Part shown: in pieces, positions 15,485-34,834 of the stretch | How the letters are laid out: every line of letters begins with the position of its first letter | How positions within the stretch are numbered: the first letter of the stretch is position 1 | Source of the DNA: Bacillota bacterium | GTDB lineage: Bacteria; Bacillota; Clostridia; Acetivibrionales; JANLFN01 | DNA length: 64,000 bases | Reading direction: 5' to 3' | NCBI GenBank assembly: GCA_023421675.1 | Contig: JAEZTC010000001.1 | Location: 31,388 to 95,387 of the forward strand | Translations under genes and position numbers: made by a program | The notes under the pieces: generated by a model | The model's input: the letters and a program-made list of their open reading frames with translations, nothing else | Told to the model about the DNA's origin: nothing | Database searches by the model: none

Positions 15485-16135
15485 ATGAAGAAGCTTGTGG
15501 CGGGGATTATAACTTTAACTGTTGCGGTTAGCGGTTATCTTCTTAATATAGGCAATGTAAGAGAAAAAAATGATATTAAACCTCCTTGGCAAATTGTTAG
15601 TGCACAGGAGGTTCCTTCCGGCATTTTAGATATTACAAAGGAAGGAATTGCACCCTTTAGCTTTATAAATACAACAATAACCAGGGTTACTGATGGAGAC
15701 ACGGTTGAGATGAGTTATAAAGGGAAGGACTATAAGGTCCGTTTACTGGATGTTGATACACCCGAAAGCGTTAAAACAAATCTTGCAGTACAGGAATATG
15801 GTAAAGAGGCATCGGAACTGACTAAAAAAATGCTTCTTAATCAGCCTGTGAAGCTTGTTTTTGAAAAAGGTATTCATGACAGGTACGGAAGGCTTCTTGC
15901 CTATATAATTCTCAAGGATAATTCATTATACAATGCAACTCTTGTACAAAACGGCTATGCAAGAGTTGAAATTGTTTCACCCAACTCTAAGTTTTCAAAA
16001 TATTTTAATAGCCTTCAGGACGAAGCTATTAAAAACAAGGCCGGTTTCTGGGGACTGTCTGAAGATAAACAGCCTTTTGTAAAAAACGCAAAAGGACAGT
16101 ATACACCAAGATACCAAATAAAAAAAGGTGCGTAG
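15485..16135 (+). CDS. thermonuclease (staphylococcal nuclease-like), N-terminal anchor/signal
   Basis: SNase motifs TRVTDGDTV...VRLLDVDTPE...RYGRLLAYI. Confidence 0.8.
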   Translation: MKKLVAGIITLTVAVSGYLLNIGNVREKNDIKPPWQIVSAQEVPSGILDITKEGIAPFSFINTTITRVTDGDTVEMSYKGKDYKVRLLDVDTPESVKTNLAVQEYGKEASELTKKMLLNQPVKLVFEKGIHDRYGRLLAYIILKDNSLYNATLVQNGYARVEIVSPNSKFSKYFNSLQDEAIKNKAGFWGLSEDKQPFVKNAKGQYTPRYQIKKGA

Positions 16136-19801: not shown

Positions 19802-20007
19802 TATGTTCCCCCAAAACTTTTTCTTAAAATGTACAGACGCTATGTCTATTTTAGCATTAAAGACTGCTTAATGGTATATTATGGGAAATATGACGGCTTA
19901 TTTTATGCTTATAATGTGCATAATATATTGATAACAGGGTTAAAGCGGTTACATTATATATCTGATATTGTATAATAAATATAAGAATTAATTTGAAGAG
20001 GTATTAC

Positions 20008-21395: not shown

Positions 21396-21860
21396 ATGTC
21401 AGGCGAAGGTATTAAAATAGTTGCTCAAAACAAAAAAGCTAGGCACGATTACTTTATTGAAGATACTCTTGAAGCAGGCATAGTGCTTTCAGGTACCGAG
21501 GTCAAGTCTATAAGACAGGGCAAGGTTAATTTGAAGGATAGCTATGCAATGATAGAAGACGGTGAAGTAATCTTAAGCGGTATGCACATAAGTCCTTATG
21601 AGCAGGGCAACATATTTAACAAGGATCCTTTGAGGGACCGCAAGCTGCTGCTTCATAAGTACGAGATAAACAAGCTTATCGGTTACACACAGCAGAAAGG
21701 CCTCACAATAGTTCCTCTACAGCTGTATTTTACACGAGGAAAGGTAAAACTGCAGCTTGGAATAGCTAAAGGTAAAAAGCTCTACGACAAACGCGACGAC
21801 ATAGCGGAAAGAGATGCGAAGCGCAATATAGACAGAATGATGAAGGAACAGAGTAGGTAA
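21396..21860 (+). CDS. smpB: SsrA-binding protein
   Basis: 154 aa. SmpB signature ([30 protein letters not shown]). Immediately upstream of tmRNA. Confidence 0.95.
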
Positions 21861-21890
21861 TTGAGAATTGAGAATGGAGAATTGAGAATT
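21859..21890. repeat. left 32-nt inverted repeat (tandem GAGAATT heptamers) flanking the four-helix-bundle gene
   Basis: AATTGAGAATTGAGAATGGAGAATTGAGAATT. Complementary at 29/32 positions to 22301-22332. Confidence 0.85.
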
Positions 21891-21937
21891 ATTTTAAATT
21901 CATTTTTAGTTCTAGATTATTTATAAAGGGATGCATA

Positions 21938-22297
21938 ATGAAGGATAATGTTATTGTTACTAAAACCTTCAGGTTTGCAGTAAAAGTTGTAGAATGCTAT
22001 AAGATGTTGTGTAATACAAGTAAGGAGTATGTATTGTCTAAACAACTTCTTAGTTCAGGTACCAGTATAGGGGCAAATGTGAGGGAAGCGGTACAGGCTC
22101 AAAGTAAAAAGGATTTTGTTTCAAAAATGTCTATCTCTCTTAAGGAAGCTTATGAGACTCAATATTGGATTGAGTTGCTGAAAGAGACAGAGTACATTGA
22201 TAACCAAATAGCAAGCGAATTAATTGATCAATTGGATGAGATTATAAGAATTCTTAGTTCTATTATCAAATCATCAAAGGATAATAAGCAGAAGTAG
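21938..22297 (+). CDS. four-helix-bundle protein (TIGR02436 / 23S rRNA intervening-sequence protein family)
   Basis: 119 aa. Family-typical sequence FRFAVKVVECYK...SKQLLSSGTSIGANVREAQ...SKKDFVSKMSISLKEAYETQYWIELL. RBS is AAAGGGA. Confidence 0.8.
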   Translation: MKDNVIVTKTFRFAVKVVECYKMLCNTSKEYVLSKQLLSSGTSIGANVREAVQAQSKKDFVSKMSISLKEAYETQYWIELLKETEYIDNQIASELIDQLDEIIRILSSIIKSSKDNKQK

Positions 22298-22300
22298 TTC

Positions 22301-22332
22301 TAATTCTCAATTCTCAATTGTCAATTTTCAAT
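22301..22332. repeat. right 32-nt inverted repeat (AATTCTC heptamers), partner of 21859-21890
   Basis: AATTCTCAATTCTCAATTGTCAATTTTCAATT. Starts 4 nt after the stop codon and ends 10 nt before the tmRNA 5' end. Confidence 0.85.
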
Positions 22333-22341
22333 TATATTTTT

Positions 22342-22732
22342 GGGGGCGTATTGGTTTCGACGGGATTGTTGAGACTTGGGTAGCGGGTAGAGGATTCTCG
22401 TTGGCCTCTTAAAAAACGAGAAACTAAAATTAAACGCTAAAAATAATAACAATTATTCATTAGCTTTAGCAGCTTAATACTGCTAACCGTCAGTCCAGGG
22501 TTCCTGCACCTTGGGTAGCTGGCGTCATTAAGTCAGGCCTTCGGCATAGGAAGGTTAAATGCTGGAACTTTTGCAGCGGTAGCCTTGAGCTGTAATCGTA
22601 TTTAAAGGATACTGAAAGTGTAATCCTGCCTGTGGGAGTGCACCGTAGGGAATGTAAAAATGCAGGATACACCCGTAGAAGCTCTTGTGGATATGGTTTC
22701 GGACAGGGGTTCGACACCCCTCGCCTCCACCA
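22342..22732 (+). ncRNA. ssrA: transfer-messenger RNA (tmRNA, 10Sa RNA)
   Basis: 5' GGGGGCGTATTGGTTTCGACGGG and 3' GGACAGGGGTTCGACACCCCTCGCCTCCACCA. Internal tag reading frame GCT AAA AAT AAT AAC AAT TAT TCA TTA GCT TTA GCA GCT TAA gives AKNNNNYSLALAA. Follows smpB. Confidence 0.95.
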
Positions 22733-22741
22733 AAATGAAAA

Positions 22742-22770
22742 GTATCACCATCAGGTGATGCTTTTTTATT
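22742..22770 (+). terminator. rho-independent terminator of ssrA
   Basis: GTATCACC-atca-GGTGATGC stem followed by TTTTTTATTTT. Confidence 0.8.
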
Positions 22771-22806
22771 TTGCATAGAATCGGAAGGGGTGTCGAACCT
22801 AGCGGC
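22763..22806. repeat. left boundary direct repeat (DR-L) of the ssrA-adjacent island
   Basis: TTTTTATTTTGCATAGAATCGGAAGGGGTGTCGAACCTAGCGGC. The 3' 28-mer is identical to 34807-34834. Begins in the terminator T-tract. Confidence 0.8.
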
Positions 22807-22813
22807 TTGGAGC

Positions 22814-22929
22814 GTAAAGGAAACGTGCTGAATGCACGTTTTTAGCGACAAGTGAGGAGACAGGACCCGCCAGCGGGTGGCGACTCGGAAGTATGCGAGC
22901 ACAGCGAAGCAGACGGTCGACTCTGAGCC
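22814..22929 (+). repeat. ~115-nt conserved element, copy 1 (possible structured RNA)
   Basis: About 93% identical to 23576-23690. Internal hairpins ACGTGC-tgaat-GCACGT and ACCCGC-ca-GCGGGT. Copy 1 is followed by an AAGCCGCT/AGCGGCTT terminator-like hairpin. Confidence 0.6.
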
Positions 22930-23078
22930 TGAGCCAAATAAAGCCGCTGATGAAGCGGCTTTTGCCATAATGGTTAATATAAGCCTGATTAATGAAAGTA
23001 AGTTTCGTGCAATATGGATTTGTGGTAGTTACTTATTTAGTGGATATAGTTTAGTCAAGGGAATCCTATTTCTTGATA

Positions 23079-23225
23079 TTAATCATCTTCGCCGTAACCA
23101 TATTGAGTATTCTTATATCCGCAATACTTACATCTAACATAAGCATATTCATTATCACCATCTTCCCAGGGAAGGGTCAATTCCCCGCCAGACAATGATT
23201 GTCCACAATTTTCACATGTATCCAT
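23079..23225 (-). CDS. 48-aa zinc-ribbon protein (not in the ORF track, below 60 aa)
   Basis: Minus strand reads MDTCENCGQSLSGGELTLPWEDGDNEYAYVRCKYCGYKNTQYGYGEDD*. Two CxxC pairs. Strong RBS AAGGAGGTG 6 nt upstream. Confidence 0.55.
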   Translation of the reverse strand: MDTCENCGQSLSGGELTLPWEDGDNEYAYVRCKYCGYKNTQYGYGEDD

Positions 23226-23575
23226 TAGTGCACCTCCTTAGCTTATCCATTCTCAACAAAATCAATATTATATTAATGTTATGTTATGGAAACTCATAAG
23301 TCAAGTCGATCAACAAAATAGGCGCTGTCATCAGATATTGGAAATTTTCCTATCAACATTTGAACTATGTAGGATAACAAAGTAGTAATCATAAAAAAGT
23401 AATGCAAGGGAAGGGATGAGAAAGAGCCTTCGAGGGGTAATCGCTAAAAAAATTTGGGTAGACATTAGATAGACAATTCTACTTTAAAACTCCAAAATAG
23501 GACATGATATTGCATAATACTGGAAGGTAAAAGATGGGATACCAATTTCCTTGGGATACCTTGTTTTAAGGGATA

Positions 23576-23690
23576 GTAAGGGAAACGTGCTGAATGCACG
23601 TTTTCAGCGATAAGTGAGGAGCCAGGACCCGCCAGCGGGTGGCGACTCGGAAGTATGCGAGTGAAGCGAGCAGACGGTCGACTCTGAGCC
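23576..23690 (+). repeat. ~115-nt conserved element, copy 2
   Basis: Direct-orientation near-identical copy of 22814-22929. Lies about 340 nt upstream of the HD-GHKL gene. Confidence 0.6.
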
Positions 23691-24032
23691 TCTACCAAGC
23701 AAAACCTCGATAGAAGTATAAGTTGCATACTCCATGGCTTTTGTTATTTGTAATCGCATGATGGGTGTAGGGGACTTCAATCAAATTGGTAAATAAAAAT
23801 ATTATAATTAAAAACTTTTGATATTAGTATATTGAGAAAGTTACCTACCTTATTATGTCAGTAACCATGCTTTATGACATAAGGGTAACTATCGTATAAT
23901 ATTAAATACAGAGATTTTTTCGAAAAGATACAATATTCTTGAAAAACAGGGCGGAAGTTGATAAAAATTGTTATTATATGTATAATTATTGCTAATATTA
24001 CTTTTAACTTATGTGGGGGGAATTATAAAATA

Positions 24033-26876
24033 ATGGATTCCATAGAAATACCTAAACGATTTGAAAAAAAATTAGAGAGTGATCCTGATTATTGTGTTAT
24101 TGTTAAGGAAATAATTCGCAGGTTTTCACCTATTATTAAAGATAATAAATTAGAATTTTTTCCTGAGTACACTGATCATGGGTTCTTACATATAAATAAT
24201 ACTTTACAGCTTGCTGATAGGATAATTCCAGATGAAACATATAATAAATTAAATACTTTAGACATAAGCATGATTATATTATCTGTTTTTTTGCATGACT
24301 TAGGAATGCATATTACATATGAATTTTTTATTGAATTAATTCAAGGAAAGTCTAAAAATTGTATTGATACGAGGGTTGACAATAAAACATGGGATATTTT
24401 ATGGGATGAGTTTTTTGCAGAAGCTAAGCTTTGGAGCGCAAAAAAACGCCAGTCTTTATTTAAGGATGACTTTGAAATTAAGCAACCTCCTATTAAAAGG
24501 GGAGAAGCAACAGAGAATGATAAGAAGTTTATTGGAGAATTTTTGAGGAAATATCACTCAAGACTAGCATACGAAATATGCATTTTTGGATTTCTGCAAG
24601 TTGATGGATCTAGAATGGAGCTTTCTGACAATTTAGACAATAAGCAAAAAGTATTATTAGGACTTATTGCAAGGAGTCATGGCTTAAATTTGTGGGATGT
24701 TTTTCAATACATTGAGAATGAATTTGGAAGGGAACAAATTCGATCACCCAAAAATGTTCATGCAATTTATATTATGGTTGTTTTAAGAATATCAGACTAT
24801 TTTGATATGGATAAAAGTAGGGCTAATACGCCTATTCTGAAATTTAGAAAAATAAATAGTAGTATTTCGGAATTAGAGTGGGAAAAGCATAAGGCAGTTG
24901 ATTATATAGCAATGGAATTTCAAGATGATCCAGAATCAATTTTTGTGTATATTAATGAAATTGCGCAGAGTAAAGTATACTTAGGTATAAATGACTTGTT
25001 GAAAAACATGCAAAGTGAGCTAGATACATGTTGGGCAGTTTTGGGTAAAGTATATGGGGCATATGAGAATTTACAACTTTCTTTTAGGAGAATACATTCA
25101 AATTTGGACAATAAAGATGTGTTCTTAAAGAAAGTAAAATTTGTTCCGGAAAGAATTAAATTTGATTCCAATCCAGATATTTTAAAACTCTTAATACAAC
25201 CTTTATATGGGCATAACCCAGCATATGGAATAAGAGAACTTTTGCAAAATGCTATAGATGCTTGTGTAGAAAAGGAAAAGGTTTATTCTGAAAAGTATAC
25301 ACCTAACATCATAATAACTATTGATCAAGAGTGTTTAACTGTAGAAGATAATGGTATAGGGATGAATAAAGATATATTGATAAATTACTTCCTTGTAGCA
25401 GGAGCTTCATTTAGAAATAGTGATGTATGGAAAAAGACCTATTGTTTAAATGATAAATCTACTATACCAAGAAGTGGAAGATTTGGTGTGGGTGTTTTTG
25501 CTAGTTTTCTTATTGGAAATGAAATTTCAGTTGAAACTTATAGGATGGGTGAAGATATAGGGTATAAATTTGACGCTAATATTGATACAGATCAAATTGA
25601 AGTGATAAAAGTGATTCCTGATGGAAAGAAATCTGGTACCAAAATTAAGATTAAACTAGATAAAATAGTTCTGGAAGAATTGAAAAACCAATTTGAAAAC
25701 AGTACTGATGAAATAAATTGGAGAAATTGGTATTTTGGGGACAACCCAAAACTTATAATAAATGTGCCAGACGGATGGGTGAAGGGGAGGGACAATGATG
25801 AAATAAAGGTTAGTTTATACAATGATAAGCTTGAGTCTTATTGGAAATCAATAAAGCCAGAGGGATATCATAGAGTTGATTGGACGTATAAATCATATAA
25901 TATGCTTATTTGTAATGGGATAATTATTCGAAATGGGTATAGTGCATATAGATTCATGAGATACAGGTTTCCGGAGAGCTTTTTGCAACCTTTAGTTTCA
26001 GTTGTAGACAGTGATGCTAACTTACCTTTAAATCTTGATAGAAATGGCATAAGCAACAATAGGCTTCCTTTCGAAACAGATCTTGTAAAAGACATCTATA
26101 CCGATATTATAGCAAAACTAATAATGTCAAATGATATTACCGAACTAAATGAGGAAAAGTTAATAATAAAAGAAACAAATCTTTTACACCCAGCAATAAG
26201 TCCGAGAGATTATTCGTATCGTGTTTTCGATTCTTCTGATTATCTCTTAACAAAAAAAGGATTTAATTTGTGCCATTACTATAGCTTGGAAAAACTAGAC
26301 GTTAAGCTTATTAATCGAATGTGGGTAAAAAGTGATACTCAACAAATAGATGATAAAGAATTTATCTCTAAGATTGACCATTTGATTGTAACTAAAGGTA
26401 GAATTTCTTCTATACAACAATATAAACAATGCATAGATTTAAATTATGCAATTAATCTTGGGAAGGCATATGATTTATCAAACATTCGGGCCTATATTAA
26501 AAAGGTCGAATTTAATTATATATTTGAAGAAAACAAAAATAGAATGCGTGCTGGATTTGAAAATAATATTGTTATAGAAAGTGAAAGTAACAATTGGTAC
26601 TGTATAACCTATGGAGATGTACCTAGTCCAAAGCTTGATATTGAATATTTGGAAAGGAATAGTAATAATATTAATCTATTTGTAGAATATTATTATAAAC
26701 TTACAACACAAGAGAAACGTCTTCAAGAACAATATTATTATAGATATGATGAAACTACTTTGTTTGAAGAGTTATTGACAAAGTATATGGGGGAAGATAT
26801 TTATATACCATACGATATTGGTACCAGAATGATTAAATATGATAAGCTAGTAAAAGAGATAAATAATGAGGTATAA
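24033..26876 (+). CDS. HD-phosphohydrolase / GHKL (Hsp90-MORC-like HATPase) fusion protein, candidate defence protein
   Basis: N-terminal HD motifs (DHGFLHINN; FLHDLGMH). Central Bergerat ATPase motifs: N-box ELLQNAIDA, G1 VEDNGIGM, G2 GRFGVGVFASF. The reading frame opens at 23958 with an I-rich AT-junk extension. Strikingly AT-rich codon usage. Confidence 0.75.
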   Translation: MDSIEIPKRFEKKLESDPDYCVIVKEIIRRFSPIIKDNKLEFFPEYTDHGFLHINNTLQLADRIIPDETYNKLNTLDISMIILSVFLHDLGMHITYEFFIELIQGKSKNCIDTRVDNKTWDILWDEFFAEAKLWSAKKRQSLFKDDFEIKQPPIKRGEATENDKKFIGEFLRKYHSRLAYEICIFGFLQVDGSRMELSDNLDNKQKVLLGLIARSHGLNLWDVFQYIENEFGREQIRSPKNVHAIYIMVVLRISDYFDMDKSRANTPILKFRKINSSISELEWEKHKAVDYIAMEFQDDPESIFVYINEIAQSKVYLGINDLLKNMQSELDTCWAVLGKVYGAYENLQLSFRRIHSNLDNKDVFLKKVKFVPERIKFDSNPDILKLLIQPLYGHNPAYGIRELLQNAIDACVEKEKVYSEKYTPNIIITIDQECLTVEDNGIGMNKDILINYFLVAGASFRNSDVWKKTYCLNDKSTIPRSGRFGVGVFASFLIGNEISVETYRMGEDIGYKFDANIDTDQIEVIKVIPDGKKSGTKIKIKLDKIVLEELKNQFENSTDEINWRNWYFGDNPKLIINVPDGWVKGRDNDEIKVSLYNDKLESYWKSIKPEGYHRVDWTYKSYNMLICNGIIIRNGYSAYRFMRYRFPESFLQPLVSVVDSDANLPLNLDRNGISNNRLPFETDLVKDIYTDIIAKLIMSNDITELNEEKLIIKETNLLHPAISPRDYSYRVFDSSDYLLTKKGFNLCHYYSLEKLDVKLINRMWVKSDTQQIDDKEFISKIDHLIVTKGRISSIQQYKQCIDLNYAINLGKAYDLSNIRAYIKKVEFNYIFEENKNRMRAGFENNIVIESESNNWYCITYGDVPSPKLDIEYLERNSNNINLFVEYYYKLTTQEKRLQEQYYYRYDETTLFEELLTKYMGEDIYIPYDIGTRMIKYDKLVKEINNEV

Positions 26877-26895
26877 GGAAGGTATATTGCCCCAG

Positions 26896-27110
26896 GTTCC
26901 TCATTATTTTACAGCATCGGCAAGAACCCATTTATAGGGGATAACTTTCACTGCGATTTTGGGAAAAACATATATATTGGTGATAATTTTCACGCCGATT
27001 ATAACTGTACAATGCTGGACGTTTGGGAGATAGCCTGTGACCCACTGTATAGATGCCGACATCCGGCCCAATCAGGCAGTTGTTTCCAATACGAATTTCT
27101 GCAAAAGAGT
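26896..27110. pseudogene. scrambled hexapeptide-repeat acetyltransferase (Maa/LacA-like) remnant
   Basis: Plus strand 26896-27026 encodes NPFIGDNFHCDFGKNIYIGDNFHADYNCTMLDV. The next segment, EIRIGNNCLIGPDVGIYTVGH, is on the minus strand (27100-27038). Local inversion, no intact ORF. Confidence 0.55.
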
Positions 27111-27336
27111 TGCTTGCCTGGTAACAGGTGCATTTCCGTCTTGTATTGGCCGGAAGCAAACCATCAATTATATAAAACAAGCTTGTGAGTTAAAAGGTGC
27201 GAAGATTTGTGGAATAGGAAGTGTGGGATGGTGGAGTTTTAATCGCAGTAGGCAAATCTCGGAAGTAGTTAATCATTTGACAAATTGCTTTAAATAGTTT
27301 TAGGACATAAAATACAAGGGTAACTGTATTCCGCTA

Positions 27337-27366
27337 GGGTTGTGATGATAATCACAACCCTTTTTA
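27337..27366 (+). terminator. rho-independent terminator (plus-strand orientation)
   Basis: GGGTTGTGAT-gata-ATCACAACCC stem followed by TTTTTAATTT. Confidence 0.6.
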
Positions 27367-27384
27367 ATTTAATCTCTAACCTAA

Positions 27385-28365
27385 TCAGTGTCCGCCTGAT
27401 TGAAGGTTCAACTGCCTGCTAATCCGTTCCTTTACCTGCGATAGAAAATTATCTGGTCCCAAAACTTTTACTACTGGTCCAAAACTTAAAATACGAATCA
27501 GTAGTTCGGTTTCATCTGCGGGGTCAAAGTTGATGCGGCAAGTGTAAGTATCTCGGTCTTTATCATACTCTGTCTGCCGTTCAAAAGATGCAAATTGAAG
27601 CATACAACGTTCTAATGCGTTACGTTCTTTTGAAATTTCTAAAACCACAGGTTCATTGTGGAAAGGTTCTTTATAAAGTGCATCCAAATCAACAAAAATA
27701 TCAAATTGGTTTTCTGATGGCATAACAGATTTTATGCGCCCAAGATTTAATGTAATCCGTTCAAGTTTGTTATGATGACGGTTGAATGCAGCGCACATGA
27801 GCCTGAATTTATCGTCGCGCGCCGAATAGCATATTTTATACGGATGATATTGCCGCTTGGTACGGCCACCCTTACTACTGCCATATTCGATAATCAGGGG
27901 CTGATGTGCTTTGCAAGCACCGAGAATAGCTTTAAATCGGGCAATATACCCGTCATCGTTGTAATCATCACCGTCAAGATGCTTGTCATATATATGAAAG
28001 TCATTCTGTTCATATAGTGGTTCGATATTATTCAGCGATTCATCTAATACCGTTAGTTGGCTGTCATTTAAAAACAATTTTATACGCCGATCATTAAGAA
28101 GTGCTTTTAACCATGATTTTTCAAGAGTAGTTAAAGGCCTCTTTGTTTCACTGTTGAATTTTGTGAAATATTTTTTGTCCCTTTCCGCAAGTAAACTCCA
28201 TTCACTGGAAAAGAGTGAAGGCAGCAGATGAAAAGCTGTATCATAAAAGCCGTATCCGGAAACAAGTTGTTCAATCTCGGATTTAGATAAGCCGTTCTGG
28301 GCTTGCTCCAAAATTTTAGCCACAACAGTGAAATAGCATCCATAAATTTCGGAAAACAATTCCAT
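27385..28365 (-). CDS. WYL-domain protein (downstream gene of a tandem pair)
   Basis: WYL-like core PYKICYSARDDKFRLMCAAFNRHHNKLERITLNLGRIKSV. AGGAGGTG RBS 6 nt before ATG 28365. Start overlaps the upstream stop codon (TGATG). Confidence 0.7.
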   Translation of the reverse strand: MELFSEIYGCYFTVVAKILEQAQNGLSKSEIEQLVSGYGFYDTAFHLLPSLFSSEWSLLAERDKKYFTKFNSETKRPLTTLEKSWLKALLNDRRIKLFLNDSQLTVLDESLNNIEPLYEQNDFHIYDKHLDGDDYNDDGYIARFKAILGACKAHQPLIIEYGSSKGGRTKRQYHPYKICYSARDDKFRLMCAAFNRHHNKLERITLNLGRIKSVMPSENQFDIFVDLDALYKEPFHNEPVVLEISKERNALERCMLQFASFERQTEYDKDRDTYTCRINFDPADETELLIRILSFGPVVKVLGPDNFLSQVKERISRQLNLQSGGH

Positions 28366-29600
28366 CACTGCTCACCTCCTATACTATACATCTCTGCCAT
28401 TTGGTTAATATCACTGTAAAAACGGTTGACAACAAGCTCGTTTGTCCCTTCAAGCGCGAGAATGCGGCCGGTGAATGTCTTAATCCATGGCGACATATCT
28501 GATGAGTCAAACATTTCCTTGGTGTATAGAAAAGTATTTGTGTCAAGATGCGTAAGTACACCGCCCTGACCCTCTCTCAAGATACGATGGATGATATATT
28601 GCTCACGTTTTTCATCAATGTACAGCTTCATGCATATAACTTCCTTACGGTGTTCACCGCCAAAGCTGACTCCCCAGACCTTATCTAGATTAGTACTTAG
28701 CTTTTCTTTGATTTCAGGAGCAAAATCAATTACAACATCAGGCACAACCGATTTAATATAATCCAAACGATAATTGAAAAAGCGGCGTTTTCGTAGCGAA
28801 TACATGCATGCATATCGGCGCCCGGTTGTCGCACTGACAAATATTTTCAGCGGCAATGCATGTGTGGTCGTGGTCTTTCCGCTTCTTTCGCTTTGATTTT
28901 CAAATACTACTGATTGATTTTTGTGAATAGCTGTAAGCAATTCAAGCAAAATACCGTCCTCAAGAGTGTATGCGATATAGTGATGTTTAAACGCAAATAG
29001 GTCATTTTCAGCATTTTCGTTATCCAAAATATAACTGCCAACTTCCCCGATTGGAGCAACTCCCTGAAAAAACTTGATTGCATCTAAGAATTCATGTGTT
29101 ATGTTGATAGTTTGCGGGGCGATACCGTAGAAAAATACTTTCCCTTGTTTTTCACAAGTCATCATGCCGATTCTTACATACTCATTGCACTTTCCACGGA
29201 CTGTCTGAGCATCAAAAGTGACACCACTTTTTTCGCAAATATAATCAGTAAGTGCATCCACGGCCATTTTTCTGCTTCTTAATGCGTCCAGAATATAAAA
29301 ATGCAGCATAATATCATTTGAAGTAAAACTTTTAGACTTCCATGCTGCGAACAATGGATTAACAGGAATTTTAGAACTGTCCACTGATATGAAGGAGGTT
29401 TTACTGCCATCTTTGTAATCCCATTTCATATATTTCTTGAGATAACTCTCACATCGACGTTTTTCATTATCATAGGTTCTGGCGGATTTTTTAGTGAAAT
29501 CATTGCGCGACTTGAAGCCATATACATAGAAATCTCGCATATAGTCTCGGATTTTATCAAATCTTTTTATCAGTTCTGAAAACTCTGCCATGCCCCTCAC
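28365..29600 (-). CDS. WYL-domain protein (upstream gene of a tandem pair)
   Basis: WYL-like core PLKIFVSATTGRRYACMYSLRKRRFFNYRLDYIKSV. Start is uncertain (GTG 29600 or ATG 29591). Divergent from rtcB. Confidence 0.65.
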   Translation of the reverse strand: MRGMAEFSELIKRFDKIRDYMRDFYVYGFKSRNDFTKKSARTYDNEKRRCESYLKKYMKWDYKDGSKTSFISVDSSKIPVNPLFAAWKSKSFTSNDIMLHFYILDALRSRKMAVDALTDYICEKSGVTFDAQTVRGKCNEYVRIGMMTCEKQGKVFFYGIAPQTINITHEFLDAIKFFQGVAPIGEVGSYILDNENAENDLFAFKHHYIAYTLEDGILLELLTAIHKNQSVVFENQSERSGKTTTTHALPLKIFVSATTGRRYACMYSLRKRRFFNYRLDYIKSVVPDVVIDFAPEIKEKLSTNLDKVWGVSFGGEHRKEVICMKLYIDEKREQYIIHRILREGQGGVLTHLDTNTFLYTKEMFDSSDMSPWIKTFTGRILALEGTNELVVNRFYSDINQMAEMYSIGGEQ

Positions 29601-29710
29601 CCAATAATATGATAATAATTATTCCTTAAAAAATCAACTTCGCAAACTTTTTTAAATGAAAGCAAAATAAGTTACTGGTAAAATTTAACCATAGAAAGGA
29701 GATGAATACA

Positions 29711-30943
29711 ATGTTTGTAATTTCAAACGAAAACACAAATGTACCTATTAAAATTTGGCTGTCAGATGAAAACAAAATTGAGGAAAGCTGTCTTGAACAG
29801 GCGTACCACCTCGCTAATCTGCCATTTTTACATAAATGGGTTTCATTAATGCCTGATACACATACGGGCATGGGAATGCCAATTGGTGGTGTAATTGCCA
29901 CAACCGGTGTAATAATTCCGAACGCTGTTGGTGTAGATATCGGATGTGGAATGGCTTTTGTCGGAACAGATATTAAGGTCGCTGAAATTCATGAAGTTAT
30001 GACCGGGAACGGTTCACTTCTTCAGGGCATTGTTGGAGACATCCTTCGCAATGTACCAGTCGGCTTTAATCATCATAAGAATATTCAAAGTTGCACCACT
30101 CTTGATGTTGCACTTGATAATATGGATAAATATGAAGCAAATACCGAGCTTGTAGGGCAAATTGATGCTGGCTATTATCAGATTGGGACACTTGGCGGGG
30201 GTAATCACTTTATTGAGTTACAGGAAGATAATGATGGCAATTTTGGTATAATGATTCACTCCGGCAGCCGTAATTTTGGTAAGCAAGTATGTGACTACTT
30301 CCACAAAGCCGCCCGTGATTTAAATCAAAAATGGTATTCAAAGATTCCTGATGAATGGCGGTTGGCATTTTTACCGGTTGATTCAAGTGAGGGTAAACAA
30401 TACATTAACTGGATGAATTTAGCGCTTGATTTTGCTGCTGAAAACCGTTCTAAAATGATGTATGCAGTACGTTCAATCATCGAAAAATGGATTGGCAAAT
30501 ATACGAATATTAGTTTTAACTATGCTGATGAAATAAACTGCCACCATAATTATGCTGCAATTGAACATCATTACGATAAAAATGTATGGGTTCACCGCAA
30601 AGGGGCGACCAGAGCACGACTTGGTGAAATCGCAGTTATTCCAGGTGCAATGGGTTCCTATAGCTATGTGGTTGAAGGTTTAGGGAATGAAATGAGCTTC
30701 TGCTCGTCTTCACACGGGGCAGGTCGTCAATATTCACGCAAAGTTGCAATGCAGAATTTTTCTACTGAACAGGTCATGGTCGATTTGAAAGAGCAGGGTG
30801 TTATTCTCGGGAAGCAAAACAAAGAAGACGTGGCGGAAGAAAGTCGCTTTGCATATAAGGATATAGATGTTGTAATGGAAAATCAACAGGATTTGGTTAA
30901 GCCAATCAAAAAGTTAAAGACTATAGGTGTGGTCAAAGGTTAG
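29711..30943 (+). CDS. rtcB: RNA-splicing ligase RtcB (3'-phosphate/5'-OH RNA ligase)
   Basis: RtcB motifs PDTHTGMGMPIGGV, NAVGVDIGCGM, GGGNHFIEL and the catalytic His in SSHGAGR. AGGAG RBS 9 nt upstream of ATG 29711. Confidence 0.9.
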   Translation: MFVISNENTNVPIKIWLSDENKIEESCLEQAYHLANLPFLHKWVSLMPDTHTGMGMPIGGVIATTGVIIPNAVGVDIGCGMAFVGTDIKVAEIHEVMTGNGSLLQGIVGDILRNVPVGFNHHKNIQSCTTLDVALDNMDKYEANTELVGQIDAGYYQIGTLGGGNHFIELQEDNDGNFGIMIHSGSRNFGKQVCDYFHKAARDLNQKWYSKIPDEWRLAFLPVDSSEGKQYINWMNLALDFAAENRSKMMYAVRSIIEKWIGKYTNISFNYADEINCHHNYAAIEHHYDKNVWVHRKGATRARLGEIAVIPGAMGSYSYVVEGLGNEMSFCSSSHGAGRQYSRKVAMQNFSTEQVMVDLKEQGVILGKQNKEDVAEESRFAYKDIDVVMENQQDLVKPIKKLKTIGVVKG

Positions 30944-34800: not shown

Positions 34801-34834
34801 TATGGAAATCGGAAGGGGTGTCGAACCTAGCGGC
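34787..34834. repeat. right boundary direct repeat (DR-R) of the island
   Basis: CTCTTTTTATTTTGTATGGAAATCGGAAGGGGTGTCGAACCTAGCGGC. The 28-mer is identical to DR-L. Also begins in a terminator T-tract. Confidence 0.8.

Follow-up and report, generated by a model that had tools for sequence, protein, structure and literature searches.

What is a long, AT-rich gene that joins an HD domain to a GHKL ATPase doing beside ssrA, and does it encode a single-gene defense system of a kind that has not been described, as an earlier note on this DNA proposed? We addressed this within the whole 64,000-nt stretch in which the gene lies (the window), which comes from a relative of Acetivibrio/Ruminiclostridium.

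An HD-CE domain and an ATPase are fused in one intact gene

The open reading frame spans 23958-26876 on the + strand and would encode 972 aa from a TTG codon or 947 aa from ATG 24033. The ATG is the likely start, since a GGGGGG run lies at 24015-24020, a promoter-like site overlaps the TTG, and homologs begin at the equivalent Met; the TTG of the longer version falls inside the -35 box of that site. By consensus match only, this is the top-scoring promoter-like site across 22700-27500. An NCBI assembly records a protein identical to the fusion protein (P0001). The features of the gene are as follows.

23958..23986, + strand: promoter-like TTGATA-17-TATAAT, 11/12 consensus matches, 47 nt 5' of the start codon
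24015..24020, + strand: GGGGGG run resembling a ribosome-binding site, 12 nt 5' of ATG 24033, read off the sequence
24033..26876, + strand: coding sequence of the HD-CE/Hsp90-like fusion, 947 aa, stop codon included
24159..25025, + strand: HD-CE domain, residues 43-331, Pfam PF24391, with invariant H49, H53, H88, D89, H175, H216 and D255
25143..25712, + strand: Hsp90-type N-terminal ATPase, about residues 371-560, borders approximate
25713..26132, + strand: transducer-like middle region, residues ~561-700; N628, G629, D659, L668 and R670 are invariant
26133..26873, + strand: alpha/beta region at the C-terminus, residues ~701-947, whose last helices are conserved (I925, P926, R932, L943)

The proposed fusion of HD and GHKL modules was borne out, as Pfam HD-CE and HATPase_c_3 both occur in the one polypeptide. 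PF24391 matches at E 7.2e-43 (147.6 bits versus a cut-off of 27) over profile positions 1-262 of 263, and HATPase_c_3 (PF13589) matches residues 400-525 at E 2.8e-10. Every HD and GHKL motif that had been quoted was found, with catalytic residues invariant or nearly so in 113 homologs that share 34-74% identity with the query. The HD motifs in this comparison are EYTDHGFLHI (H49, H53) and LHDLGMH (H88, D89), and those of the ATPase are RELLQNAIDA (E402, N406, D409), DNGIGM (D439, G441, G443; D439 conserved in at least 90% of the homologs) and GRFGVGV (G482, G485, G487). Invariant across the set, besides the seven HD-CE residues listed above, are E402, N406, D409, G441, G443, R480, G482, G485, G487, G535 and T536 in the ATPase and N628, G629, D659 and R670 in the middle region. 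The H...HD...D metal ligands are present, with H53, H88, D89 and D255 invariant in the 113 sequences. As judged from this alignment, residue conservation shows both modules to be intact and under constraint.

Fold comparison places the HD domain nearest to the GppA/PPX C-terminal domain and to cyclic-nucleotide phosphodiesterases. Neither a Cas3-type HD nuclease nor an HD dNTPase of the SAMHD1-Dgt type was retained as an identity, the domain not being structurally closest to either. The HD nuclease that had been suggested is unsupported, given the HD-CE match and a structure that is not closest to the Cas3-type HD. The nearest folds also give no specific pointer to dNTPs, an observation that counts against dNTP depletion.

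The ATPase and the region beyond it resemble Hsp90

The ATPase domain comprises an N-terminal strand and helix, the N-box (E402/N406/D409), DNGIGM, GRFGVGV and G535-T536. In profile searches it matches the HtpG model at 1e-18 versus 1e-8 for the MORC-type BbrUII model, and the N-domains of Hsp90, GRP94 and HtpG in the PDB match it at E ~1e-19. Profile alignment with HtpG by hhalign gave a probability of 98.85% (E 4e-17). The 50 best structures in a Foldseek search all belong to the Hsp90 family, and alignments with full-length Hsp90 chains span 520-750 columns. Profiles and fold searches thus place the ATPase in the Hsp90 family, and the description of it as MORC-like has to be dropped. Housekeeping HtpG was likewise rejected as an identity: model NF003555 scores 67 bits versus a cut-off of 371, matching only profile positions 11-176 of 614.

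These comparisons bear on a rival explanation in which the HD domain is a nuclease and the GHKL body uses ATP to clamp DNA or RNA, in the manner of MORC, SMCHD1, MutL or type II topoisomerases, the outcome being cleavage of foreign nucleic acid instead of a loss of nucleotide pools. Prokaryotic MORC/paraMORC GHKL ATPases do occur in restriction contexts (Iyer, Abhiman & Aravind 2008), and paraMORC-HEPN fusions have been reported (PMC3710099). A MORC/paraMORC identity was rejected here, as BbrUII reaches 33.9 bits versus a 550-bit cut-off and Hsp90-family matches are consistently stronger, and the fold of the HD domain has been described above. We consider the nuclease explanation unlikely.

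Approximately 400 aa toward the C-terminus had been thought to carry no recognizable motif. By predicted fold, this stretch corresponds to the middle and C-terminal regions of Hsp90, in a structure with pLDDT mostly >85. The middle-region motif VVDSDANLPLNLDRN is similar to the Hsp90 catalytic loop DLPLN(V/L)SRE. Residues ~701-947 probably correspond to what remains of the Hsp90 middle domain together with the dimerization domain at its C-terminus, and by analogy we infer a role in dimerization. The Hsp90 assignment of the middle and C-terminal regions comes from fold comparison, the sequence aligning in the N domain only: phmmer of residues 590-722 against the PDB gave no match, and when both regions were aligned with HtpG profile to profile, LPLN..R was the sole motif recovered (E 0.04-0.06, not significant alone). 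Because an Hsp90-like ATPase is followed by ~400 aa of Hsp90 fold, the fusion protein is, on its predicted structure, an HD-CE domain joined to a diverged full-length Hsp90 paralog.

The gene lies in a variable slot next to ssrA

The surroundings of the gene contain the following features.

21396-21860: smpB
22342..22732, + strand: ssrA, the tmRNA gene, which anchors the variable slot on its left (ARAGORN; Rfam RF00023, 184 bits)
22779..22806, + strand: left copy of a 28-nt perfect direct repeat, AATCGGAAGGGGTGTCGAACCTAGCGGC
27336..27361, + strand: terminator-like hairpin, AGGGTTGTGATGATAATCACAACCCT, then a T run
27385-29600, - strand: two WYL genes
34807..34834, + strand: the 28-nt repeat again, as its right-hand copy, identical to 22779..22806

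Comparison with sister strains, whose core genes (TsaD included) are 95-99% identical, shows a variable region here and confirms the ssrA-adjacent island; these strains lack the fusion gene at the ssrA slot, which is empty or holds other cargo. In sister strain L103 the hairpin's 31 nt, 100% identical, lie directly 3' of ssrA, which means that 4.6 kb with the fusion gene sit between ssrA and the hairpin in our window. In L103 and L104 the variable region has the 28-nt repeat sequence at its right-hand boundary, and near-identity with L104 starts again from ~34846. Among the nine larger ORFs scanned at 26.9-33.6 kb of the 12-kb variable segment, none encodes an integrase domain. A 137-nt repeat matched no Rfam family, and JGI metagenome contigs held no exact copy of it.

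The gene was said to be AT-rich, and computed values agree. Its GC of 0.298 is the minimum of the 56 window ORFs and its GC3 is 0.229, compared to 0.388 +/- 0.035 and 0.352 +/- 0.061 in the other 55 ORFs of at least 100 aa. The ortholog in C. perfringens ATCC 13124 (ABG82602.1) has 74% protein identity, and the gene together with 75 nt upstream shares 78% DNA identity with C. perfringens over 2.9 kb, in a block that begins exactly at 23958. In the same comparison smpB and ssrA align over only 226 and 159 nt, at 73-74%, and the flanks are unalignable. Orthologs at 58-74% identity, the close Clostridium ones included, occupy four unrelated genomic contexts.

Homologs are widely scattered. The family comprises ~2,300 clusters at 50% identity, with 2,310 representatives matching at E <= 1e-30, and almost all of the best 150 of these match end to end. 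Every full-length match of ~900-1050 aa carries both PF24391 and PF13589; one 624-aa fragment has PF13589 only. Pattern scans of one-genome-per-species representatives of 185,579 species gave 226 matches (~0.1%) in many phyla, a sparse and patchy distribution. A core, syntenic housekeeping gene is excluded by this rarity among species representatives together with the absence at the locus in sister strains. The C. botulinum cluster contains split copies of the gene, which are presumably inactivated. Distant HD-CE + HATPase relatives with the same two domains (~24% identity) occur on plasmids; the plasmid collection holds no full-length orthologs, only these distant relatives, and the phage collection holds none either, only Hsp90-domain matches. 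From its sparse spread, varied contexts, DNA identity with C. perfringens, low GC, the alternative cargo of sister strains and the split copies, we conclude that the fusion gene is horizontally acquired, accessory and mobile.

Defense genes are moderately enriched near homologs

All-against-all clustering of the +/-5 neighbors at 82 loci found no conserved partner, the largest cluster covering 7 loci at scattered positions. With no fixed-position partner and no conserved neighbor, the gene is a single-gene unit, as had been claimed. The WYL regulators were dismissed as partners: they are divergent from RtcB, no neighbor family recurs beside homologs, and WYL is not among the recurrent neighbor families listed for them. 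The WYL genes probably regulate RtcB. A toxin-antitoxin pair, also reported at this locus, was not recovered, as none of the small ORFs tested at 19.4-31.5 kb has a Pfam match at E <= 0.01.

Among the matches listed, we estimate that roughly 26-28 of 247 neighbors within +/-2 genes of homologs match PADLOC at E <= 1e-10 (~10%). The matched families are AbiE, type I and IIG R-M, PifA, MADS, DRT8, QatCD, Ppl, MzaA, ShosA, PsyrA and PDC candidates. For genes >6.5 kb from homologs the corresponding estimate, again among the matches listed, is roughly 8-10 of 148 (~6%), and one of 54 window ORFs serving as a control matches (2%), a small set from one genome rather than random loci from the homologs' genomes, which makes the enrichment indicative only. 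Neighbor enrichment in defense genes is therefore moderate. Individual neighbors include an nSTAND3 NTPase, and the plasmid relatives adjoin TIR, type I R-M, AbiEii and Shedu genes.

Other findings weigh against a defense role. No PADLOC-recognized defense gene was seen among the 54 window ORFs tested, many homologs sit among ordinary metabolic genes, and phages seldom carry the family (4 contigs in IMG/VR). A scan of the fusion protein against PADLOC-DB v2.0.0 matched 0 families at E <= 1; with the family absent from PADLOC v2, its members escape annotation by that tool. The defense role first proposed stays plausible, in light of the defense-rich neighborhoods and a Pfam name that denotes a conflict effector, but the enrichment is moderate and PADLOC offers no match.

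The gene could instead encode an accessory stress or signaling enzyme outside immunity, a specialized Hsp90-type chaperone with a phosphohydrolase that acts on (p)ppGpp, polyphosphate or cyclic nucleotides under proteotoxic or nutritional stress. Its nearest HD folds, an ATPase that is a true Hsp90 relative, and the RtcB RNA-repair gene and SPFH gene near the fusion gene all fit such an enzyme, as do the many homologs with metabolic or regulatory neighbors only (e.g., sigma/anti-sigma, MarR and ABC transporters, C. botulinum). It is harder to reconcile with a very sparse, patchy distribution, close orthologs in unrelated contexts, sister strains that lack the gene at the locus, foreign base composition, decayed copies, defense genes nearby in excess of the control, and a score far below the HtpG equivalog cut-off (67 versus 371 bits). 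We therefore hold a stress enzyme to be improbable.

We see a slimmer chance still that the gene is a selfish, toxin-like element, its toxic enzyme being maintained through addiction or used as a weapon against rival mobile elements, with no specific anti-phage role. The mobility of a lone gene at a hotspot of recombination adjoining ssrA would suit such an element, and so would the recombinases, transposases and TA-like AbiE genes that flank plasmid relatives and the split copies. However, no antitoxin or immunity gene recurs adjacent to it at the 82 loci, the homologs' neighbors show no secretion-system context, and strong purifying constraint on all domains across many phyla fits a regulated function better than a bare toxin.

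A proposed model for infection sensing by an Hsp90-like body

With somewhat better than even confidence, we favor the view that the gene encodes a self-contained mobile conflict protein, most likely acting in anti-phage abortive infection, in which a diverged full-length Hsp90 paralog, as ATP-driven sensor and switch, governs a metal-dependent HD-CE phosphohydrolase effector. HD-CE immediately precedes the strand and helix with which the Hsp90 N-terminus begins. By analogy to Hsp90, the protein would be a constitutive dimer held by its C-terminal helices. An infection cue, either a phage protein as 'client' or another infection-specific ligand, may bind the Hsp90-like body and then permit or block ATP-dependent N-terminal closure. 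Closure could re-juxtapose the two HD-CE domains and so switch hydrolysis on. The substrate, following the published classification of the family, would most likely be free nucleotides (dNTP/NTP or a related phosphoester), the depletion of which would halt phage replication and host growth. In this scheme the position of HD-CE comes from data, and the trigger, the dimer and the coupling of ATPase to HD are carried over from Hsp90 biology.

More tentatively, the conflict protein may represent the Hsp90 chaperone cycle itself repurposed as an innate-immune sensor, with a phage 'client' or proteotoxic load leading to closure and then to nucleotide destruction by HD-CE, all in one polypeptide; we regard this as possible but doubtful. 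If shown, it would give the first example, grounded in experiment, of a prokaryotic defense protein whose pattern-recognition module is a chaperone fold. The Hsp90-like body would then play the role that STAND NTPases have in Avs/NLR proteins, with parallels to eukaryotic Hsp90-NLR cooperation and to sacsin. Should the prediction hold, the gene would provide a compact one-gene model for a chaperone-type ATPase as infection sensor and for the phosphoester target of HD-CE. The locus is a clean natural example, partnerless, with its own promoter-like site, in a defined ssrA slot and with sister strains that lack the gene, and the C. perfringens ATCC 13124 ortholog offers a cultivable source.

Relation to known systems

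The abstract of the Nicastro survey of 2023 reportedly describes HSP90- and HSP70-related modules, analogs of STAND and GTPase domains, coupled to effectors in predicted nucleotide-targeting immune systems. The suggestion that the system had not been described is unsupported, HD-CE being a Pfam family and HSP90-coupled systems reportedly being described in that survey. The 'CE' of HD-CE (PF24391) denotes a 'conflict effector'; the survey is the source of the family and is cited for predicted nucleotide-targeting effectors (Nicastro, Burroughs, Iyer & Aravind 2023, Nucleic Acids Res 51:11479). Our full-text literature search found no paper on an HD-CE/Hsp90-like fusion and no experimental report on any family member, and later papers citing Nicastro et al. 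2023 do not mention HSP90 or HD-CE. The fusion protein is a solid member of a kind already predicted computationally, apparently without experimental validation. It shares with the predicted HD-CE/HSP90 systems a full-length HD-CE match, an Hsp90-type ATPase, a stand-alone mobile gene and defense genes often nearby; we detected no architectural difference from the systems that the abstract reportedly describes.

With Hsp90 chaperones (HtpG, TRAP1, GRP94 and Hsp82), the protein shares a Bergerat N-domain, its strand and helix included, in which every residue for ATP binding and catalysis is kept, and the fold continues through its middle and C-terminal regions; its LPLNLDR weakly resembles their LPLN(L/V)SRE catalytic loop. 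Unlike these core chaperones, it is accessory, patchy, horizontally moved and equipped with a ~350-aa N-terminal HD-CE region. Sacsin offers an analogy of architecture only, being eukaryotic and giant, with three Hsp90-like ATPase repeats plus DnaJ and a HEPN effector but no HD domain; we know of no immune role for it. HD-domain dNTPases of the bacterial dGTPase/SAMHD1-like type are said to have been described as defense proteins by Tal and colleagues in 2022, and they too are metal-dependent HD phosphohydrolases proposed to starve phage of nucleotides.

Calcineurin-CE, a sister 'CE' family, depletes dNTPs in an anti-phage system and aborts infection (PMC12871103). That system, PUA-Calcineurin-CE-HAD (bioRxiv 2026, PMC12871103), likewise couples a conflict-effector phosphoesterase from the 2023 survey to a sensor, but its effector is calcineurin-like, its PUA-like sensor binds m6-dAMP, and its two genes form a filament. 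Of the experimental precedents for the action of a -CE effector, this system is the best.

The fusion gene and its composition

The gene lies within a longer open reading frame that begins at a promoter-like site:

23958-26876, plus strand: open reading frame enclosing the fusion gene, as read from the sequence
23958 (first base), plus strand: promoter-like site TTGATA-17-TATAAT, 11 of 12 matches, the best in the region
12 nt before ATG 24033, plus strand: GGGGGG run, as read from the sequence

Because the upstream TTG (23958) opens the promoter-like site, the GGGGGG run precedes the ATG, and the equivalent methionine is the start in aligned homologues, translation almost certainly begins at ATG 24033 and yields a product of 947 aa. 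The AT-richness noted earlier was confirmed. The gene has a G+C content of 0.298 and a GC3 of 0.229, compared with means of 0.388 +/- 0.035 and 0.352 +/- 0.061 for the other 55 window ORFs of at least 100 aa, and its G+C is the lowest among them. Immediately 3' of the gene, a short ORF on the minus strand (26932-27180) has a weak match to hexapeptide-repeat acetyltransferases (E 0.008) and may be the remnant of a gene broken at an insertion boundary. A toxin-antitoxin pair proposed beside the gene found no support among the small ORFs tested against Pfam.

An HD-CE domain fused to an Hsp90-like ATPase

A Pfam search of the fusion protein identified an HD-type conflict effector domain (HD-CE, PF24391) at residues 43-331 (E 7.2e-43) and a Bergerat-fold ATPase domain (HATPase_c_3, PF13589) at residues 400-525 (E 2.8e-10), in agreement with the HD and GHKL calls of the earlier note, whose quoted motifs are all present. 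We scored residue conservation in an alignment of 113 homologues with 34-74% identity to the query. The HD ligands (H49, H53, H88, D89, H175, H216, D255) and the Bergerat residues (E402, N406, D409, G441, G443, R480, G482, G485, G487, G535, T536) are invariant, and both catalytic modules are intact and constrained.

The ATPase is a relative of Hsp90 and not of MORC, as had been suggested. Its top NCBIfam model is HtpG (E 1e-18), with the MORC-type BbrUII model at 1e-8; all NCBIfam matches, these two included, are far under family cut-offs. Searched against the PDB, the family profile matched the N-domains of Hsp90, GRP94 and HtpG at ~1e-19, with the alignment opening at the Hsp90-specific N-terminal strand and helix, and profile-profile comparison with four HtpG sequences gave 98.85% probability across the ATPase N-domain. 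We used the 113-sequence alignment to build an AlphaFold2 model; it was confident (mean pLDDT 89.1, pTM 0.78), and all of its top 50 Foldseek matches were Hsp90-family structures.

Fold comparison of the fusion-protein model, with the two comparison values for each structure
TRAP1: 19.7; 362
SMCHD1 ATPase module: 19.2; 320
GRP94: 18.6; 374
ParE, Topo II, MORC, MutL: 14-16; 235-316

The C-terminal ~400 aa had been described as lacking any motif. Since Foldseek alignments to full-length Hsp90 chains span 520-750 columns, and the ~600 aa beyond the HD domain are the size of bacterial HtpG, this region is best read, from the predicted fold, as the middle and C-terminal parts of a diverged Hsp90. 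An invariant segment, VVDSDANLPLNLDRN (containing R670), is similar to the DLPLN(V/L)SRE catalytic loop of Hsp90 and is the best local profile match to HtpG thereabouts, at an E of 0.04-0.06 that is not significant alone; phmmer against the PDB gave no match in the putative middle region. Overall, the protein has an Hsp90-type architecture.

A widespread, single-gene family

The fusion protein has matches in more than 1,495 clusters at 90% identity, and 119 of the best 120 are ~820-1000 aa long with both Pfam domains. An HMM search of 1.84 billion representatives returned 2,310 at E <= 1e-30, with end-to-end matches in almost all of the best 150. A pattern scan across 185,579 species, each represented by a single genome, turned up 226 relatives; these belong to Bacillota, Bacteroidota, Acidobacteriota, Pseudomonadota, Verrucomicrobiota, Planctomycetota, Chloroflexota and other phyla. 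Clustering of five genes on each side at 82 loci revealed no fixed-position partner, and a Pfam tally of immediate neighbours was highly mixed. The fusion gene is therefore a single-gene unit, as the earlier note had it. In the Clostridium botulinum/C. cagae orthologue cluster, several genomes carry the gene split into pieces of 586-595 and 364-372 aa; these look like frameshifted copies or copies in decay.

A strain-variable slot 3' of ssrA

The placement of the gene in an ssrA-adjacent island held up in the sister strains L103 and L104, which carry other cargo there:

22342-22732: tmRNA gene (ssrA), with smpB just upstream
22779-22806 and 34807-34834: perfect 28-nt direct repeat AATCGGAAGGGGTGTCGAACCTAGCGGC, ~45 nt with imperfect bases
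L104:15240-20817: DUF4238-like gene (faint Pfam match) and 842-aa SEC-C protein
L103:15734-19763: SLH-domain protein and nitroreductase-like gene

DUF4238 proteins have been reported as candidates for single-gene defence. Both strains (TsaD 99% identical to the window's in L104 and 95% in L103; flanking DNA 98.7-99.7% and 86-90%) are syntenic with the window as far as ssrA, beyond which the cargo differs; near-identity with L104 picks up again at ~34846. The repeat copies enclose the window's 12.0-kb strain-variable segment, and in L103 and L104 the same 28-nt sequence lies at the variable region's right edge. Those larger ORFs of the window's segment that were scanned contained no integrase domain. 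The hairpin immediately 3' of ssrA in L103 corresponds to window 27336-27366, just beyond the fusion gene. Because of the sister cargo, the repeats and this hairpin, we conclude that the gene occupies a strain-variable slot 3' of ssrA; its deviant G+C within that slot makes it look like a separate acquisition.

Clostridium orthologues, at 58-74% identity, occupy unrelated contexts, four including the window. The C. perfringens copy also lies 0.9 kb downstream of ssrA with flanks that differ from the window's; the C. botulinum copy is flanked by a sigma/anti-sigma pair and a VTT-domain gene; and that of Clostridium sp. CTA-1 by a glycine-cleavage operon and an nSTAND3 NTPase. The window's host is an uncultured Acetivibrio/Ruminiclostridium relative whose TsaD is 73-74% identical to those of named genera. 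Against C. perfringens DNA, the gene and 75 nt upstream align at 78% identity across 2,917 nt, while smpB and ssrA are alignable over only 226 and 159 nt at 73-74%, with unalignable flanks. The fusion gene is thus stand-alone and mobile. That it is simply a selfish, toxin-like element, which would also be stand-alone and mobile, we consider highly improbable.

Several further elements were observed at the locus and in the sister strains:

After 22715, in ssrA: window site matching the tmRNA inserts of the sister strains; the window's ssrA is uninterrupted
L104:14927-15225 and L103:15446-15719: ~275-300-nt insert splitting the tmRNA gene in the T-loop, followed by the 3' exon CCTCGCCTCCACCA
22809-22945 and 23571-23706: G+C-rich ~137-nt repeat, copies ~90% identical, between ssrA and the fusion gene
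L103:16261-16340 and 19813-19852: partial copies of this repeat in the ssrA-adjacent region
23080-23230, minus strand: small cysteine-rich, zinc-ribbon-like ORF between the repeat copies, by sequence reading
21938-22297: '23S rRNA intervening sequence protein' gene (PF05635) between smpB and ssrA, within an indel at 21833-22340
27385-30943: two tandem WYL-domain genes on the minus strand, one with WCX, divergent from an RtcB RNA ligase gene

Despite an end-to-end match to the Rfam group I intron model, with core AAGATATAGTC, the tmRNA insert scores just 23.9 bits (E 4.8e-4), under the gathering score of 50. ARAGORN called no tmRNA in L103 or L104. The ~137-nt repeat contains hairpins (fold z-score -2.7) and matched no Rfam family and, exactly, no JGI metagenome contig. 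A plus-strand ORF (22877-23137) overlapping the zinc-ribbon-like ORF had no Pfam match. The PF05635 gene is present in the window and L103; L104 has 31 nt in place of 508 nt, between flanks 99% identical. This family accounts for 2 of 124 neighbours of homologues elsewhere. The WYL and RtcB genes lie inside the strain-variable segment, and the WYL genes resemble a PafBC-style pair of regulators acting on RtcB; their proposed linkage to the fusion gene falls away given this arrangement and the 82 partnerless loci.

Defence genes near homologues

We scored neighbours as defence genes by PADLOC matches at E <= 1e-10, with counts estimated from per-family tables among the matches listed.

PADLOC-positive genes
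Two genes each side of homologues: about 26-28 of 247 (estimate, among matches listed)
Genes more than 6.5 kb off, same loci: about 8-10 of 148 (estimate, among matches listed)
Control, other window ORFs: 1 of 54 (SNase)

Among the matches listed, near-neighbour families include AbiEi/Eii, type I and IIG R-M, PifA, MADS, DRT8, QatC/D, Ppl, MzaA, ShosA, PsyrA, DpdB and PDC candidates; those of the distant genes are Septu, R-M, AbiEi and PDC-S05. This enrichment near homologues is indicative rather than proven, the control being small and from one genome. The sole control match, an SNase-domain protein (15485-16132, plus strand; model C3a212 'SNc+LTD', E 5e-26), probably reflects generic similarity to thermonucleases. 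Distant relatives (~24% identity) with the same HD-CE and HATPase architecture are carried on plasmids, where they adjoin a TIR protein, a type I R-M system, AbiEii, Shedu, recombinases and transposases. Set beside these neighbourhoods, an accessory stress or signalling enzyme seems a distinctly unlikely identity for the fusion protein, and we lean modestly towards a conflict system.

A possible mechanism and its relation to known effectors

As a conflict system, the protein would dimerize through its C-terminal region, as Hsp90 does, and an infection cue would act on the Hsp90-like body. Closure of the N-termini, driven by ATP, could then reposition the two HD-CE domains, which directly precede the predicted swapping N-terminal strand, switching on hydrolysis of phosphoesters, with free nucleotides the likeliest substrate, and leading to abortive infection. 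We hold free nucleotides as the specific substrate less firmly than the conflict-system reading itself. The earlier assumption that the HD domain is a nuclease is not supported, and a version of the mechanism built on a nuclease or DNA clamp is unlikely.

Nicastro et al. (2023) reportedly name Calcineurin-CE, HD-CE and PRTase-CE, and are reported to describe HSP90- and HSP70-related modules, analogous to STAND and GTPase domains, that are coupled to those effectors. On that basis, the HD-CE and Hsp90-like architecture has already been described computationally; with HD-CE also in Pfam, the system can no longer be called undescribed. PADLOC v2 is without a model for the fusion protein, and a full-text literature search found no experimental work on an HD-CE/Hsp90 fusion. 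The finding is real and, at the level of sequence, well characterized. The protein belongs to a kind known from prediction and, in the literature we found, never tested, which makes it a reasonable experimental target, not a discovery. The 'CE' of the Pfam name stands for 'conflict effector' (PMC12871103). A passage of the same source credits Nicastro, Burroughs, Iyer & Aravind 2023 (NAR 51:11479) with identifying Calcineurin-CE as a predicted nucleotide-targeting immune effector family, and in the PUA-Calcineurin-CE-HAD system, Calcineurin-CE aborts infection via dNTP depletion (2026 preprint, PMC12871103).
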